A stretch of 63,851 nt of DNA from a virus. Taxonomy: Duplodnaviria > Heunggongvirae > Uroviricota > Caudoviricetes. Below the pieces are notes generated by a model. The model saw nothing but the letters and a program-made list of their open reading frames with translations. It was not told where the DNA came from and did no database searches. The translations under genes were made by a program, and so were the position numbers. The stretch is from positions 64,001-127,851 of IMG/VR virus record IMGVR_UViG_2879469214_000003, one strand, 5' to 3'. Shown here piece after piece: positions 52,696-63,851 of the stretch (positions are counted from its first letter, which is position 1; the number at the start of each line of letters is the position of its first letter).

Positions 52696-53838
52696 TTGTT
52701 ACTAACTGAAACCGTAACTGTTAAAACAAATCCTAGGAGCTACAAACACTATTTGAATAAGGGATACTCAGTTAAGTGCGGAGGAACAGTATGTGTAAAA
52801 GTAGAAGACTTAACCCCAAGCAGCACTGTTGTAGTGTCAGTAAAGTGTGATTATTGCAGTAATGTTATTGATAAAAAATACTATAAATATTATAGATCTC
52901 ATAACAAACAATCGATAAATAAAGACTGTTGCAGTAAGTGTAATATGGAAAAAGTTAAAGAGACAAATCTTCTACTTTATGGAGAAGAGCATTGTATGAA
53001 AGTAGAGTCAATAAAAAATAGAGCTCAACAAACCAATCTGACCAAGTATGGATTCATAACGCCCTCCTCCTCAGATCTGGTTAAAAATAAAGTCAAGAGC
53101 ACTAACAGAAATAGATATGGAGTTGACTATTATTCTCAAACGAAAGAGCACATTGAGACAGTAAGAAATACATGTCTTAGGAAATATGGTGTGAGCGCAT
53201 ATTCACAAACAGAAGAATGCCGTATAAAAATTAAAAATACTTGTTTAAAAAAGTATGGCGTAACCCATCATACAAAATTAGAAAAAATCCAGAATAAAAA
53301 ACGAAAAACAAATTTATTAAAATATGGTGTTGAGAATTTACTACAAGATAAAGAAGAACTTAAAAAGAGAAAGATTAAAGCAACGCTAACATTATCAAAA
53401 AATGGAACAGTCAATACATCTAAACAGCAATTATATTTACATAGGTTAATAGGTGGAAAAATCAACTATCCAGTTGACAGGATTATGATTGATATTTTGA
53501 AGGATAATATCGCAATTGAATATGATGGAACTGGACACGACATCCCTGTTAAATATGGTAGAGTCTCAAAGAAGGAATTTAATTTAAAAGAATTAAAAAG
53601 AGATAAATTTTTGAATTCGAGAGGCTACAAAGTTTTAAGAATAAAATCTCTCACACAAACAAAACTTCCCGAAGATAGCATTATTGTCAAATTAGTTAAT
53701 GAAGCAACAATTTTATTTCAAAATGAGGATTTTAAATGGTTCGAAATAAATCTCGATGAGAATTGTGTTCGCTATAAAAATGTGAAAATTGACTATGATT
53801 TCGGAGCACTTTTCGAAATCAAAACTATAGGAGCTTAA
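52696..53838 (+). CDS. Free-standing homing endonuclease-like protein (Zn/KYG repeats plus Vsr/PD-(D/E)xK domain)
   Basis: KCDYC, six KYG-type repeats, IDILKDNIAIEYDGTGH. Confidence 0.7.
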   Translation: MLLTETVTVKTNPRSYKHYLNKGYSVKCGGTVCVKVEDLTPSSTVVVSVKCDYCSNVIDKKYYKYYRSHNKQSINKDCCSKCNMEKVKETNLLLYGEEHCMKVESIKNRAQQTNLTKYGFITPSSSDLVKNKVKSTNRNRYGVDYYSQTKEHIETVRNTCLRKYGVSAYSQTEECRIKIKNTCLKKYGVTHHTKLEKIQNKKRKTNLLKYGVENLLQDKEELKKRKIKATLTLSKNGTVNTSKQQLYLHRLIGGKINYPVDRIMIDILKDNIAIEYDGTGHDIPVKYGRVSKKEFNLKELKRDKFLNSRGYKVLRIKSLTQTKLPEDSIIVKLVNEATILFQNEDFKWFEINLDENCVRYKNVKIDYDFGALFEIKTIGA

Positions 53839-53839
53839 A

Positions 53840-54847
53840 ATGAAACAAAAAACTATTTTGTACCCATGCACGTTAGACTATTCGTTTCTTTTTCAGCGAC
53901 CCCAACAGATATTGAGGCAACTTGCTAAGTTGGGGTGGCGTGTCATATTTTGCAATAATACTCAATCAGGCAGAACTCCAGAAGAAGTGGAGCCAAATTT
54001 GTTTGTATACCACAATTTCGAAGAAGTTTTGTCTTTAATAAAACATAATAAAATAAAAATAGATGTTTTTTATTATACATGGGCCAAATCAGCTCAGTTT
54101 GCAGATAATATAAAAGCAAAAATCAACATTTACGATTCAGTTGATTCTTTTTCTGATTGGTATGAATTCGAAGAGTATGCAACTAAGAGAGCGGATATTG
54201 TATTAACTTCAAGCCAATTCCTATTTGATCTTCGAAGTAAAGATAAAGATAGTACGTATTTAATTAGAAATGCTTGTCCCGAAGACTATATCGACCACCC
54301 TTCTCAGGTTCCTGATGAGTATAAAAAATTGAGTGGTCCCATTGTTATTTTTTCGGGGGCTATTGGATCGTGGGTCGATACACGACTTATACGAAAAGTT
54401 GCAAATAGATATACTACAGTTCTAGTCGGTCAGGAATTTGGTAAGGAGTGTCCTTCTAATGTACTAAAATTAGGAACCAAATCGCATGAAGATTTATACA
54501 ATTACTATGCTCATGCTGATGTTTGCTTGCTACCATTTAACACGAAGCTAGAAATTACTCAGGCTGCATGTGCAATCAAGATGTTTGAACATATGGCTGC
54601 GGGTAAAATCACCGTTGCTACAAAATGGCTGGAAACTGACTTGTATCCCGATGCAGTACTGACCTCAGAATCGGATGAAGAATTTCTTCAGAATGTTGAT
54701 CGTGCGATAGAGATGGCAAAGCTCGATTCACACAAGCAGACTTGTATAGATTACGCAAAAAGAAACACATGGGAATTAAGAGTTAAACAAATTGAGGAAG
54801 CAATTGAGGAATATTCACTGAAAAGTGGTGTTGTGATTGGGTCTTAA
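53840..54847 (+). CDS. GT-B (GT4-like) glycosyltransferase
   Basis: FLFQRPQQI, YDSVD, FSGAIGSWVD, IKMFEHMAAGK. Confidence 0.85.
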   Translation: MKQKTILYPCTLDYSFLFQRPQQILRQLAKLGWRVIFCNNTQSGRTPEEVEPNLFVYHNFEEVLSLIKHNKIKIDVFYYTWAKSAQFADNIKAKINIYDSVDSFSDWYEFEEYATKRADIVLTSSQFLFDLRSKDKDSTYLIRNACPEDYIDHPSQVPDEYKKLSGPIVIFSGAIGSWVDTRLIRKVANRYTTVLVGQEFGKECPSNVLKLGTKSHEDLYNYYAHADVCLLPFNTKLEITQAACAIKMFEHMAAGKITVATKWLETDLYPDAVLTSESDEEFLQNVDRAIEMAKLDSHKQTCIDYAKRNTWELRVKQIEEAIEEYSLKSGVVIGS

Positions 54848-56788: not shown

Positions 56789-57790
56789 TTGAGTAAAAAA
56801 GAAGTTAAGCAAAACACATTACGTGAACCAGCAAAGAAGCAAGCAGAAGTAACTGAAGAAATGTGGCTTCAGGTAAATGAAGATTATCGGTTAATTGTAG
56901 ATGAATTCATATCAGTTCAAGATCTGTCCCCTGCTTCACGAAAGCAATATACAAGTGTGCTTCGACAATTTGGTTGGTATCTTTTTAGTTCGATGAATGA
57001 CAAACCATTCTACAAAATAACCAAACGTGATTTCTTGCGCTATTTGAGTTTCATACGCGACAATCGTAAAATGTCATCTTCCGCTATTAGTCTGAGAAAA
57101 TCTGTCGTGTCTAGTCTGTGTAATCACATTGAAAACATTATTGCAGATGAAGAGGAAAATTATAAAGGTTTTAGAAACTTTACTCGTGGACTCCCTGCAA
57201 TCGCACGGAATAGAGTTTATGAGAAAGTAAAAGTTACCAAAGATGAGTTTGACTCAATGATGAAGATTCTTGAAGAAGATCAAAACTGGCTAGGTATGGC
57301 ATGGCTTGCTACAGCTTTCCTTGTAGGTGCTAGACGTTCAGAGATTATTCAGTTCAAGTCAGAAATCATGGATTATAAAGTACCTGAAGGTCAAAATTAT
57401 GTGCTATCTCACGTAGTTCGAGGTAAGGGCCCTTCAACCGATGGCAAACCCCTAGAGTATATGGTTCCATTAGAGGTTTTACCATATTGGCAAAAGTGGA
57501 TTGATACACGAGGGTACGAAAGTGAATATGTTTTCACAACTAGATATGGAAATGAGATCAAAGCAATGTCTTCGGCGTGGGCAAATGATTTCTGTACTAA
57601 TGTGTTGTCAGACATGTTAGAGCGTAGAATTAACGTACATATATTTAAGAATTCATGTATTACTTATCTCCTTGAATCCGGTGTGCCAATGCATTTGGTA
57701 TCTAAGTATGTAGCTCACCATAACGACATTTCAACAACACAGATTTATGATTTGAGGGATTTTGAAGAAGAAAAGAATCAAATTTTCTAA
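56789..57790 (+). CDS. Tyrosine recombinase-family protein (YomM-like)
   Basis: GARRSE, RGKG, HIFKN (K at HxxR Arg), AHHN, TQIY. Confidence 0.85.
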   Translation: MSKKEVKQNTLREPAKKQAEVTEEMWLQVNEDYRLIVDEFISVQDLSPASRKQYTSVLRQFGWYLFSSMNDKPFYKITKRDFLRYLSFIRDNRKMSSSAISLRKSVVSSLCNHIENIIADEEENYKGFRNFTRGLPAIARNRVYEKVKVTKDEFDSMMKILEEDQNWLGMAWLATAFLVGARRSEIIQFKSEIMDYKVPEGQNYVLSHVVRGKGPSTDGKPLEYMVPLEVLPYWQKWIDTRGYESEYVFTTRYGNEIKAMSSAWANDFCTNVLSDMLERRINVHIFKNSCITYLLESGVPMHLVSKYVAHHNDISTTQIYDLRDFEEEKNQIF

Positions 57791-58336: not shown

Positions 58337-59763
58337 ATGACTGATTTGAAGATTTTGATTGAGGCTGGCCTAAATATGGGTCTTAGCGTCAAAAATGTAA
58401 ACCAAGAGATAAAGGCTTTAGCTTCTCATCCCTCCCTCAAATCTCTGAATTTGAAAGTGGATATTGATAAGTCATTTGTTAAAGCAATGAATGAGTTTGT
58501 CTCAGCTACTAAAGTATTAAGTCATGCTTTAGAGCAGCAGCAAAAAGTTGTAAATGAGTCAGTTAAAACAACTAAAATGTTGGATGGCTCAATTGAAAAG
58601 GTAGTACAGCGCCAAATGGCTAATGGCGATATTATCACTAAAAACAGTAAAAAGATTAACGAAGAAACTAAAGCTTACAGCGAGCAAAAGAAAACATTGC
58701 AGCAACTTGAAAAAGAACTAGATGGATACACCTTAGCAAGAACCCGAGCCAATAAGAATAAGCTTGGCGAGATCAATAGCACGACAAATACATATAAAAA
58801 TCAGGCTGGGCAACAAGTAAGCGTCAATGTTGACAATGAAGGCAACGTTAAGAATTACAGTCAGATTACTGATTATCTAAAACAGCAACAAGATGCATTG
58901 CAAAAAGAGCAAGCGATTAATAAGCAACGTGAGCAAGCAGCACAACAGGAATATGCAACACGTAAAGCTTTGGCTGACAAAAATCTCAAAGAAGAAGAAC
59001 AGCGGAATCAGCAATTTCTTAATCAATTGAGAACACGTTTTACAGAGGAGCAGAAAATTGCTCGTGATAGAGACGCTGTAGATAAAGCACATACAGCAGC
59101 TATTAGTGAGAATTTAAACAGGCAAAAAGCTGTTGCAGATATGCAAGCGAAGATAACGTCAGCACAATCCAAGTTTAAGGGTAATTCTTCTGCTGTTGCT
59201 GAATTAAGTGCTCTAAATGCCCAATTGGGCAATGTGTCAAAAGTGAGTAATTACAAGAACGCATTAACTGAATTGCAGACAAAACTCACACAAATTACAT
59301 CTCAAGCTAAATTAGCGGGAAATGAAACTAGAACACTGGGACAACGTTTTGGTGATGCTGCATCTAAGGTAGCTATGTGGGCAGGTGCAACTTCATCTGT
59401 TTATATGGTGACAAGAGCGTTGAGAGATATGGTCAGTGTAGTTATTCAAGTAGATAGCCAAATGACTCAATTGAAACGTGTAATGGATGAATCGACTGAC
59501 TTTGAGGGCATGTTGAGTCGTAGTATTCAATTGGCAAATGAGTTAGGTCGAAGCATTACAGAAGTAAACGAGAATGCTATTGGGTTTGCACGTATGGGAT
59601 TCGATGAAGATCAGACGATGAATCTAGCTAAGACAACCACGTTACTACAGAACATATCTGAGTTAACGCCACAGGAATCGGTAGATACTTTAACAGCAGC
59701 TATGACTATTTTTAACGTTGAAGCTGGTAAGAGTATTGAAATTGCGAATAAGTTGAACGAGAT
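58337..59763 (+). CDS. Tape measure protein, exon 1
   Basis: Coiled coil then TP901-type TMP domain ...SIEIANKLNEI; frame completes with exon 2. Confidence 0.9.
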
Positions 59764-61013
59764 TAAACCGAGTCTCCTCATGCAGCAATGTATGTAGAAA
59801 AATTTGGCTATATCAGGGGAAGCCGAGAGGTCGGTAATCCTGAGGAAAGACCTGTTTATTTACTTTCATCTCCCCCCAAATTCTGGAGGTGCAAGTTTGT
59901 TAATTAAAGATAAATTAATTGAAGTTAAAATCACGAATTACAATAAGAAACATTATCAGAGTTTGGGATATAAATGCGAAAATGAATCTGAGATTTATGT
60001 ATCTCAAGAACAAATACCTCCCTCTTCTAGAATTAAGGTTGAGTGCAGATGCGACTATTGCCTTGAGAACTTTGAAAGAAAAAGAGTTGACGTAAAAACC
60101 ACTACTCTTTGTAGCACAAGATGCAGAAATGAATATTTAAAATTAAACAATCCTAATCCATCAAAAGATAAAATTGAGGTTGCATGTGCTGTCTGTCGCT
60201 CTACATTCTTAGTGAACGAAGCTAAGTACAAAAATCAAACTCACTTTTTATGCTCAAGAAAATGCTACAGCACTCACAGATCAATGTTGTATCATTCAGA
60301 TAATGTGTATAACTATCAGTCCATCTATCGAAAATGTTCGAATTGTGATAAAGAAGTCAAGATTATAGAATATGATTTAACAAATAGGAATAACTCCTTT
60401 TGCTCTCCATCTTGCTATCATGTACATAAAAAGAATAACTTTAGCACTTATTACTTCAATGACAGATTAAATAATAGCAGAAAAGAAACAAAACCAGAAA
60501 AGGCTGTTAGAGAATATTTATCTAAAAGCAATATTAAATTTGAACAAGAGTTTTGCATCCATAATACCTATTTTGCTGATTTTTATTTACCCGACTACAA
60601 TGAAATCATTGAAGTATACGGAGATTACTGGCATTGTAATCCATCCAAATATCCAGAGGATGCGATGCGAACCGAGATGCAAATTCGCAGTATAAATAGA
60701 GATAAAAAGAGAAATGGACATCTAAAACATCTTGGATACAGTGTAAATATTATATGGGAAGAACAAGTTAATAAGAATATTGACCATTTCATGGGGGAAA
60801 TCGTCAATAATATAGTAAATAAACAGGAATCCGCAACGACTACACGCCAAAGTCCTTAGATGATAAGGAACAAGATATAGTCTGAACTGCATAGAACCTA
60901 ATAAAGAATATGCAGAGAGACGGTCAAGTGTAAAGACACTTTGAAGGAGTACCGTCTCCGCTATACTGCTTGTATAGTCAGTAAGGCGAAATATGCCTGA
61001 AAGTAACAGAATG
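59764..61013 (+). mobile_element. Group I intron 1 (1250 nt) with endonuclease ORF
   Basis: P1 GAGAU/GUCUC with U59763-G59772 wobble; R GCAACGACTAC, S AAGATATAGTCT; ends in G; removal restores NEIDNNY. Confidence 0.9.
59897..60859 (+). CDS. Intron-encoded homing endonuclease (Cys-rich repeats plus Vsr-like/EDxHD-type domain)
   Basis: TTG start 6 nt after GGAGGT; CSxxC repeats; ETKPEK...FADFYLP...IIEVYGDYWH; C-terminus overlaps intron core. Confidence 0.8.
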   Translation: MLIKDKLIEVKITNYNKKHYQSLGYKCENESEIYVSQEQIPPSSRIKVECRCDYCLENFERKRVDVKTTTLCSTRCRNEYLKLNNPNPSKDKIEVACAVCRSTFLVNEAKYKNQTHFLCSRKCYSTHRSMLYHSDNVYNYQSIYRKCSNCDKEVKIIEYDLTNRNNSFCSPSCYHVHKKNNFSTYYFNDRLNNSRKETKPEKAVREYLSKSNIKFEQEFCIHNTYFADFYLPDYNEIIEVYGDYWHCNPSKYPEDAMRTEMQIRSINRDKKRNGHLKHLGYSVNIIWEEQVNKNIDHFMGEIVNNIVNKQESATTTRQSP

Positions 61014-61167
61014 TGATAACAACTACGCAATTACAACTCAGAACCTTGCACTGTCTATGACAAAAGCAGGTGCAAGCGCCAATACCTTTGGTGTTTCAAT
61101 GGAAAAATTGTTGGGCGATACAACTGCAATTACAACAGCGACAAGAGAAAGTGGATCAGTGGTCGGT
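61014..61167 (+). CDS. Tape measure protein, exon 2
   Basis: 154 nt encoding DNNYAITTQNLALSMTKAGASANTFGVSMEKLLGDTTAITTATRESGSVVG. Confidence 0.9.
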
Positions 61168-61436
61168 AAAAATGTTGCCGCCTAATATGGGAACATATTA
61201 GTGAAAAATCTCTACTTATTGACTTGGATCTCCCACTGGGACAACAAGGGGCAAGTTTAAATACAGCCTGAACGACTAAGTGTAGAGATGTCCAGAACGG
61301 ACAAAGCGATAGTCTGAACTCTATGGGAACATAGAGAGAAGTACTCAAGTGTAAAGACACTTTTGGAAGAAGTGCTTCCGCTATACTGTCAATGTATAGT
61401 CAGTAGGATATTGATGTATCTGAAAGTAACAGAATG
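61168..61436 (+). mobile_element. Group I intron 2 (269 nt, no ORF)
   Basis: P1 CGGU/GCCG with U61167-G61177 wobble; R GAACGACTAA, S GCGATAGTCT; same 3' end CTGAAAGTAACAGAATG; removal restores VVGNSLKSIYSRI. Confidence 0.9.
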
Positions 61437-63851
61437 AACTCACTTAAATCCATTTACTCGCGTATCACCTCAATGAGTAAATCAGAAGACGTACTAAGTG
61501 GCGTTGGTGTAGCCATGAAGGATATGAATGGTGAAGTTAGAGATGTCTCGTCCATTCTCGACGATTTAGCAGGAAAATGGTCAGGATTATCCAAAGAACA
61601 ACAACAAAATACAGCAGTTCAACTTGCCGGGCGTTATCAGCTAAGTCGGTTTTTAAGTCTCATGCAAAATTATGACATATCTGTTCAAGCTACAGAAACA
61701 GCCCTCAACTCTCAAGGTTCAGCTACACGAGAAAATGAGAAATACATGGCATCCCTCGAAGCACGTATCCAGAAGATGAAAACTGCTTGGGAAACAATGT
61801 CCCTTGCCTTCGGAGACGCAATAATCTCCGACTCAATTGTAACTCTTACCTCTCTCATAGCCTCCATGTTAAACGGTGTTGCTAAAGTAGTCGATGTGGT
61901 AGGCGCTCTCCCTGTCATCTTTGGTGTGGCAAGCGTTGCTCTTCTCGGCCTTCATCTAGGCTTCCGTATGCTTATTATCGAGATGACTAAAACTATTGCA
62001 TCTCTGTTTGGTCTCACTATTCAAACTGGCACAGCTTCCGCAGGACTAAATAGATTCTCTCTTTCTACTATTGCATCTAAAATATCTCTTTTGGGTCTAT
62101 CCGGTGCAGCAAATATAGCTAAAGTTGCTTTGCGTGGACTGATGATTGCCACTGGTGTTGGAGCTGCTTTTGCCGTATTAGGTTGGGCTATCGAGGGAAT
62201 TGTCGGCCTCTTCTCAGATGCCACTCAAGCTACTGAAGATTTTACTGACAAAACTGAAGCATTAAATGAAAAACAATATGATTTAGCTAACCTCAGAAAA
62301 CTTCAAGAAGAGTACGATTCGCTCTCCAAGAAAACCAGTTTGAATTATGATGAAAAATCAAAATTGGCTCAAATTGAAAGTGAACTGTCTTCAAAATATG
62401 GAATCACTGTTCAAGGAATAGATGGACAAACCAAATCTATTCAAGAAAATAATGAAGCAATAAAATCCGCAATTGAACTCAAAGAAGCGGAACTAAAGAT
62501 AGAACGTGATCGCGCTGAAATTGAATACGCTGCAAACTCACGAGACATTGAAAGTAATATTTCTAAGTACAAAGAGCAATTATTTGCTTTAGAAAAAAGT
62601 AAACAAGCAGCACAAGAAGAATATGATTTACGCACAAAGATTCTTAGTCAAACCAGCACATCAGATCCTTCATATGATGCAAATAGTCGTCACGCTCAGA
62701 ATGCAGCTAAAGCACTGCAAGAAGAATTATCTGCTTACGATGAAACTAACACTAAACTTCAAGAGTATACAAATAAAAAAGCTTTAATTCTTAAAAATGC
62801 AGGTCAAGAATACGTTGATGAGCAGGAACGAAACAACGTTAAAATAAGCGGCATGACTCGCAAATTTATCGATATTTATGCACAGGCTGCCGCTGAAAGT
62901 AAAATTCCAGCCGATCAGATTAAAAATAATATCGGTCAAGTTTTTCAGGGTGTTCAAAGTGGCAACATAAAGAACGCTGAGCAAGGAATGAAACTCTTAG
63001 AGTCCCTACCGGGTGTAGCAAACTTAACTGCTGAATCCTATAGAAATATGGGTGCTGCTATATCTCAAGTTGACTATGCTCCAGTAGTTGAGGGTGTTGA
63101 AAATACCGAGGATGCCGTAGATGGGTTGGGTACTTCCGCTGACCAAACAGGACAAAAAGTTAGCGAAATGTCCAAGAAACTTGATGAACTATCAGTTTGG
63201 GCTACCAATTCAAAAGAAGAAGTTGAACTTTTAAATAAAGCTCAGTCTGAACTCGCGAAAAAGAACACTCTTTCTGCCGACACGATCAAGAAGATGAATG
63301 AAAAGTATGGAGACTTTATTAAGATCACTGGACTTAGTAAAGATTCTATTTTGAAGTTCATAAAAGCAAAAAAAGAAGAGAAAATAGAATTTATCAATGC
63401 TGAAATTAAGAAAACTGAGGCTGCAATTAAAGCTTCAATGACTAGAATCGCTACTGTTGAGCTAGAAATGAGTGCACGACAAAAACTCATTGATCAGATG
63501 AAAGAAGATTACTCGGATATCGCTGGTAAAGATCCATTGGAAGATATCAAGACTGAATCCAGAATGGGTGCTGTAAGATCTGCTGGCGGCAAGCAAGCTG
63601 ACTTAACTTACGAAAAGGAAAAATTATCTGAGTTAATTGCAACGCTACAGACGTGGAAGAGTATAGGGTCTGATACTACTGAGATGATTAAGAATGGCGA
63701 TAAAGCTGTAGAGGATGCAACTAAATCTAACGATAAGTCTAACCAATCTTATACCGACACCAATGAGATTCTAACTGAAACTCAGAAACAGTTTATCAAA
63801 TTGGCTGATGCAATCAAGAAGGTTCAGAATGAGCGCAATACAATGGTTAAG
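61437..63851 (+). CDS. Tape measure protein, exon 3 (continues beyond window)
   Basis: Frame NSLKSIYSRITSM...LAGRYQLSRF read at both ends and in register with the window end; antisense shadow ORFs typical of TMP. Confidence 0.85.

Follow-up and report, generated by a model that had tools for sequence, protein, structure and literature searches.

The window analysed here (63,851 nucleotides, the whole of the stretch whose first lines stand above) makes up the second half of a provirus record of 127,851 bases in IMG/VR, IMGVR_UViG_2879469214_000003, and it ends within a gene for a tape measure protein (TMP) that is divided into three exons by two insertions. All features of the window described below lie on the plus strand. 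Exon 1 (58337..59763, 1427 nucleotides (nt)) ends two bases into an Ile codon and matches intronless TMPs in BLASTP searches at E 1e-106 to 1e-111. Exon 2 (61014..61167, 154 nt) comprises 51 codons plus one base and is colinear with intronless homologues, and exon 3 (61437..63851, 2415 nt) stays open at its 3' end up to the last base of the window, which is also the last base of the record (63851). Between them lie intron 1 (59764..61013, 1250 nt, terminal G at 61013), which carries a homing endonuclease gene, and intron 2 (61168..61436, 269 nt, terminal G at 61436), which has no open reading frame (ORF). Joining the exons as join(58337..59763, 61014..61167, 61437..>63851) produces a frame of 1332 amino acids (aa) with zero stops and with the junction peptides KLNEI|DNNYAI and SVVG|NSLKSIYSRI. 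These joins and peptides had been proposed in a first-pass annotation of the DNA and proved exact, the open frame being free of gaps against both intronless TMPs and empty-site alleles. We consider it highly probable that the TMP gene of this SPbeta-like, probably Paenibacillus provirus is split by two paralogous self-splicing group I introns, 154 nt apart, within its most conserved domain, PhageMin_Tail.

The joins are fixed to the base by comparison with uninterrupted genes. The spliced protein matches the annotated uninterrupted TMPs of the Bacillus phages FADO, PK-3 and Tsamsa and of the SPbeta-like BUCT083 with BLASTP E-values of 1e-91 to 1e-111, and a multiple alignment with these four TMPs has zero gaps at both joins, which fall where the motifs of this domain are best conserved. 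At the DNA level the spliced sequence is likewise gap-free against empty-site alleles from Paenibacillus sp. NPDC057886 (L124), Paenibacillus sp. QZ-Y1 (L122/L123) and P. illinoisensis (L144), as well as against the IMG/VR contigs L096, in which the second site is empty, and L102, in which the first is. The Pfam family PF10145 (PhageMin_Tail) spans the second join, exon 2 supplying profile positions 87-135 and exon 3 positions 136-201, so that positions 135|136 are contiguous and the domain is continuous after splicing, as the first-pass annotation had claimed; scored separately, the two exon pieces reach 21.7 and 32.2 bits, each under the cut-off of 33.2. Further downstream, exon 3 is colinear with the QZ-Y1 TMP up to aa 1332 and contains no intron at a third site (aa 592/593, "site 3") that is used in relatives. 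Precise removal of both introns would restore a continuous TMP gene.

Both introns have the architecture of group I ribozymes. Their helices were mapped by hand and the complementarity was checked by script, and P1 to P9 together with P9.1, P9.1a, P9.2 and P9.3 are 100% paired in both. In intron 1 the helices are P1 (59759-63/59772-76), P2 (59779-84/59789-94), P3 (59803-08/60846-51), P4 (59814-17/59839-42), P5 (59822-26/59831-35), P6 (59844-46/60830-32), P6a (59851-63/60815-27), P7 (60836+60838-42/60878-83), P8 (60853-58/60864-69), P9 (60887-93/60909-15) and P9.1 (60917-24/60951-58), followed by P9.1a, P9.2 and P9.3. The corresponding elements of intron 2 are P1 (61164-69/61175-80), P2 (61182-89/61194-201), P3 (61208-15/61282-89), P4 (61223-26/61245-48), P5 (61231-34/61238-41), P6 (61249-52/61266-69), P7 (61272+61274-78/61310-15), P8 (61290-93/61299-302), P9 (61320-25/61330-35), P9.1 (61338-45/61371-78), P9.1a (61347-52/61357-62), P9.2 (61380-86/61394-400) and P9.3 (61406-11/61416-21).

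P1 pairs GAGAU with GUCUC in intron 1 (5/5 paired) and CGGUAA with UUGCCG in intron 2 (6/6 paired). Both 5' exons end in U, which forms the U·G pair at the splice site, and among relatives the guide sequence varies along with the exon, as contig L047 shows (GAGGU/GCCUC). P7 is identical in the two introns (A-U, bulged C, G-C, A-U, C-G, U-A, A-U), and both introns retain the conserved J6/7-P7 and J8/7 motifs undamaged, with J6/7 and J8/7 aligning to the Rfam consensus. Helix mapping, Rfam matches and covariation thus bear out what the first-pass annotation had seen in both introns, namely a P1 with a U-G wobble, the P7 elements and a terminal G. P6a of intron 1 is a 13-base-pair stem that closes a loop of ~950 nt bearing the ORF. 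Introns of subgroups IA1 and IA2 carry P7.1/P7.2 between P3' and P8. A single hairpin, P8, lies between P3' and J8/7 in both introns here (13 nt in intron 2 and 17 nt in intron 1) with no P7.1/P7.2 seen, and for this reason the introns cannot be placed in IA1/IA2. The 3' halves of introns 1 and 2 align well, and the differences between them, in P3, P8, P9, P9.1 and P9.3, are compensatory; by sequence, the two introns are paralogues.

Searched in E-value mode over 2 kb, the Rfam group I model RF00028 matched intron 2 over its full length (40.9 bits, E 1.7e-8) and intron 1 in its 3' core only (60714-60894, 21.9 bits, E 8e-3). Both scores from this covariance-model check, a kind of check that the first-pass annotation had named, are under the 50-bit gathering cut-off. 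A default Rfam scan of the whole window was empty, and an RF00028 search of the whole 127.9-kb record listed the intron 1 core alone and no additional introns. Compensatory changes were found in 24 of 64 RNAalifold pairs when six ORF-less relatives from sites 1 and 2 were compared, and a P7 A-U to G-C swap occurs among ORF-less relatives. A covariance model of the P3-P9 core, R1, was built from 13 relatives with intron 1 left out. Within the window R1 matched intron 1 only (60774-60916, 26.6 bits, E 6e-4), and it gave 72 matches against 100 IMG/VR loci. In the resulting family alignment of 62 distinct members 94.1% of cells are paired, versus 59.5% after shuffling and 40-49% with slid partners; this alignment was fitted to R1, so the pairing is somewhat inflated, but the margin is large. 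Double-sided changes occur at 26 of the 27 pairs, and the covariation score is 0.599 versus 0.160, with none of 500 shuffles scoring as high.

These data bear on whether RNA splicing is involved at all. The program-made ORF list shows a 486-aa frame (58337-59797), a 351-aa frame (59804-60859) and a 3'-open 806-aa frame from ATG 61434, and standard gene callers would likewise show ORFs of 486 and 806 aa with a nuclease ORF between them, as expected if the gene were split without splicing, whether it encodes separate TMP polypeptides or is a pseudogene interrupted by unrelated insertions (a free-standing nuclease gene, an intein, a group II intron or an insertion sequence (IS) element). The 486-aa product that the first-pass annotation expected from unspliced RNA is indeed what the sequence encodes, the reading being ended by an in-frame TAG (59795..59797) just past P2 and ahead of the catalytic core of intron 1. 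Exon 2, however, would then be a 51-codon fragment of a conserved domain, and the sole ORF over it (61057..61185) begins at ATG 61057, 15 codons in, so that the DNNYAI motif is not encoded; this frame ends at an in-frame TAA (61183..61185) where P2 begins, six codons inside intron 2. ATG 61434, from which the 806-aa frame is read, belongs to the terminal AAUG of intron 2. Moreover, both insertions have a covarying group I core, and each is inserted, exact to the base, where the codons of empty-site alleles run on uninterrupted. We regard a gene split without splicing as very improbable. An intein is ruled out by stops in all frames, and a group II intron, an IS element and a split gene were rejected in view of the group I core with covariation and the base-exact insertion. 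A direct join of exon 1 to exon 3 that skips exon 2 (5' splice site of the first intron, 3' splice site of the second) was also considered and discarded; it would shift the frame, since 154 is not a multiple of 3, and yield no useful product.

The homing endonuclease gene of intron 1 (59897..60859, 320 aa) lies inside the P6a loop. Its start is most likely TTG 59897, 7 nt past a GGAGG Shine-Dalgarno sequence, which is covered by a predicted hairpin (59862..59896) with a folding energy of -11 kcal/mol and a z-score of -2.57. The N-terminal part of the protein consists of three CxxC...FCS-type zinc-finger repeats, and the C-terminal part is a nuclease resembling Vsr and I-Bth0305I. In Pfam, DUF559 passed its cut-off (26.4 bits, cut-off 20.6) and Vsr remained under cut-off at 15.5 bits. 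As a single sequence the endonuclease does not match I-Bth0305I significantly (E 0.46), whereas a profile of six homologues matches the I-Bth0305I structure (PDB 3r3p) at E 5e-7, Vsr (1cw0) at E 3e-3 and an FCS finger (2l8e) at E 3e-3. Residues E218, D228, E239, G242, H246, D269, W287 and E288 are invariant in the six homologues. Over its final ~45 nt the ORF overlaps the P6a'-P6'-P7-P3'-P8 portion of the ribozyme. Homologues of the endonuclease, both intact and decayed, are found inside other TMP introns, and three of them contain in-frame stops (L103:3153-3938, six; L009:9828-10460, one; L057:7039-7503, two) in introns that are still recognisable; decay of the endonuclease gene occurs in this intron family. 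Elsewhere in the window, a free-standing ORF (52696-53838) has an N-terminal segment of ~55 aa that resembles, at 33% identity (E 1e-6), the N-terminal part of the endonuclease in intron 1, and the remainder of that ORF differs.

Several observations weigh against two functional introns in an intact gene. P10 as read off the sequence is weak, with ~3 base pairs in intron 2 and ~1 in intron 1; the Rfam scores lie under threshold, intron 1 at 21.9 bits, and a default scan would miss both introns; the family alignment that shows covariation was fitted to its own model; the ~45-nt overlap of the endonuclease ORF with the intron 1 core means that translation could disturb folding; and the record ends within the TMP gene, with the frame seen to aa 1332 only. 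The low Rfam scores and weak P10, together with the decaying endonuclease genes of related introns in L103, L009 and L057, would also fit introns that are group I by descent with one or both of them splicing-dead here, through a decayed ribozyme or the need for a host or phage factor, which would leave the TMP inactive and the prophage tail-less. In this provirus, however, all helices from P1 to P9.3 are perfectly complementary, the J6/7-P7 and J8/7 motifs are intact, the exons are undamaged across 1332 codons and the endonuclease ORF is intact, and on this evidence we judge loss of splicing to be unlikely, though less so than a split gene that never spliced.

Relatives of the introns are widespread in TMP genes. 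A 17-mer from P9.1a was found in more than 116 IMG/VR contigs, and nhmmer applied to these contigs returned 130 intron-like stretches, at least 51 of them directly upstream of a TMP exon; the family also lies next to TMP exons in named Bacillales genomes. A search of genome contigs with exon 3 as a single-protein query returned no relatives, whereas a four-sequence alignment query did find them. Against GenBank phages, a megablast search with the region gave zero matches, and blastn with intron 2 gave two short matches only, in faecal phage contigs. Under stricter filters a strong R1 match was present in two of 151 genomes sampled from the taxonomic family to which P. barcinonensis belongs; the element is sporadic, as expected of prophage cargo.

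TMP junction positions cluster at aa ~471, 476/477, 502/503, 527/528, ~536, 592/593 and ~600, of which ~536 is a large cluster of exon starts not separated from 527/528, making about seven recurring insertion sites in one TMP domain. Close relatives (86-89% aa identity) differ in carrying from zero to four introns per TMP in differing combinations of sites: QZ-Y1 has none, P. illinoisensis one and P. barcinonensis three, contig L096 has introns at sites 1 and 3, and the IMG/VR contig L064 and Paenibacillus sp. Marseille-Q4541 have four each. Multi-intron TMPs pack their introns into ~120 codons (L064:792-3412; L143:1885-4000; L145:1873-4525), usually with an endonuclease gene in one or two of them. 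The endonuclease family of intron 1 is also found in introns at 502/503 (Paenibacillus) and 527/528 (L102 and Sporosarcina globispora), and site-3 introns (L096:8980-10470, L064:1991-3412) contain a distinct 381-aa ORF that is unrelated to the window endonuclease by tblastn. The site-3 intron of L096 has its terminal ~20 nt, together with the first exon bases, in two copies ~65 nt apart, adjoining an N in the contig. Intron 1 has its P1-P2 portion in common with two ORF-less introns at site 1, those of L064 and L096, but its core and endonuclease family turn up again at different sites (L102, L146, L143-L145).

The most likely course of events can be outlined for two self-splicing introns. After late transcription each intron would fold into P1-P9 with the P9.1-P9.3 extension, bind guanosine in P7 and excise itself by two transesterifications that use the U·G pair of P1 and the terminal G. 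Ligation of the three exons would then give a single mRNA encoding a TMP longer than 1332 aa, and the in-frame stops in or just past P2 may keep ribosomes off the catalytic cores. The intron 1 endonuclease presumably cuts intronless TMP alleles in co-infecting or resident relatives, and repair would copy the intron in. Intron 2, ORF-less and 154 bp away, would most simply spread by co-conversion. Extending this, we tentatively suggest that introns 1 and 2 form one mobile unit in a multi-site hot spot, with intron 2 co-converted across the 154-bp exon through the action of the intron 1 endonuclease, and that the family diversifies by recombination of modules, in which a site-specific P1-P2 guide would recombine with interchangeable core/endonuclease and P9 parts. 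This proposal is possible, and we hold it with much less assurance than the presence of two self-splicing introns; if true, it accounts for up to four introns within ~120 codons of one TMP domain.

The provirus is SPbeta-like. TMP exon 1 has 86-88% aa identity to prophages of P. barcinonensis, P. illinoisensis and Paenibacillus sp. NPDC057886, which suggests a Paenibacillus host. A tyrosine recombinase gene (56789-57790; Phage_integrase plus a SAM-like N domain) lies in the tail module, with one small gene between it and the TMP gene. An integrase gene is also found upstream of the TMP gene in phages FADO, PK-3 and SPbeta-like BUCT083, and the gene at the same position in Tsamsa is annotated as hypothetical. 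A sub-threshold Rfam match to the drz-agam-2-2 ribozyme at 54136-54337 (22.8 bits, gathering score 38, E 0.087) is probably due to chance.

Individual features of the locus have counterparts in well-studied systems. In the td intron of phage T4 the I-TevI ORF loops out from P6, and its translation is limited by RNA structure masking the ribosome binding site; the window ORF similarly lies in the P6a loop with a predicted hairpin over its Shine-Dalgarno sequence; the td intron differs in encoding a GIY-YIG endonuclease, in interrupting a nucleotide-metabolism gene and in being an IA2 intron with P7.1/P7.2. I-Bth0305I sits in a recA intron, so that its host gene differs from the TMP gene. Like the window endonuclease, this enzyme of B. 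thuringiensis phage 0305phi8-36 is intron-encoded, has a Vsr-like fold and comes from a Bacillus-type phage, but the window protein has in addition the three N-terminal FCS-type zinc-finger repeats.

The closest precedent is found in prophages of the B. cereus group, in which group I introns at three sites of TMP genes (TMP-IVS1, TMP-IVS2 and TMP-IVS3) were described by Tourasse and Kolsto in 2008 (PMC2504315). Those authors reported paralogous introns at neighbouring TMP sites that differ mainly in P1 and the internal guide sequence, as well as different introns at one site (PMC2504315). The introns described here resemble them in interrupting a prophage TMP gene at several sites per gene with neighbouring paralogous introns of that kind, in having an endonuclease gene in some introns only, in their in-frame stops in P1/P2 and in their patchy distribution among related prophages. 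They differ in lineage, which here is SPbeta-like and probably Paenibacillus. The B. cereus-group introns were reported as IA1/IA2 (PMC2504315), and on a comparison of descriptions the architecture may differ too, a single hairpin being seen here between P3' and J8/7. In Vibrio phage ICP1 the TMP gene is also interrupted by endonuclease-bearing intron(s), with two intronic endonuclease genes in one isolate; there the endonuclease is of the HNH-3 type and the phage is a Gram-negative myovirus. Splicing of the ICP1 TMP transcript was demonstrated in 2023 by RNA sequencing and reverse transcription PCR in a study that termed the TMP gene "frequently interrupted" (PMC10448857), and spliced introns in capsid and tail genes are known from Cluster J mycobacteriophages (PMC3706429).

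The first-pass annotation had held that group I introns in structural genes are few. That premise fails because the TMP gene is a documented and recurrent target of group I introns (PMC2504315, PMC10448857), and the present family stands beside TMP exons in dozens of IMG/VR contigs. The locus is a clean new example of TMP introns and not a new phenomenon, the kind having been documented since 2008, and it leaves the known picture of phage intron targets unchanged. It has a practical consequence for annotation. Gene callers would break this TMP into fragments of 486 and 806 aa with a nuclease between them, default Rfam thresholds miss both introns, and the same holds in many related prophages and IMG/VR contigs; TMP lengths are under-called in consequence, as is prophage "intactness". 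For the biology of these phages, the locus provides a well-resolved case for the PhageMin_Tail domain as a preferred landing pad of group I introns, and a natural system in which to study the co-conversion of ORF-less introns and the swapping of modules between introns.

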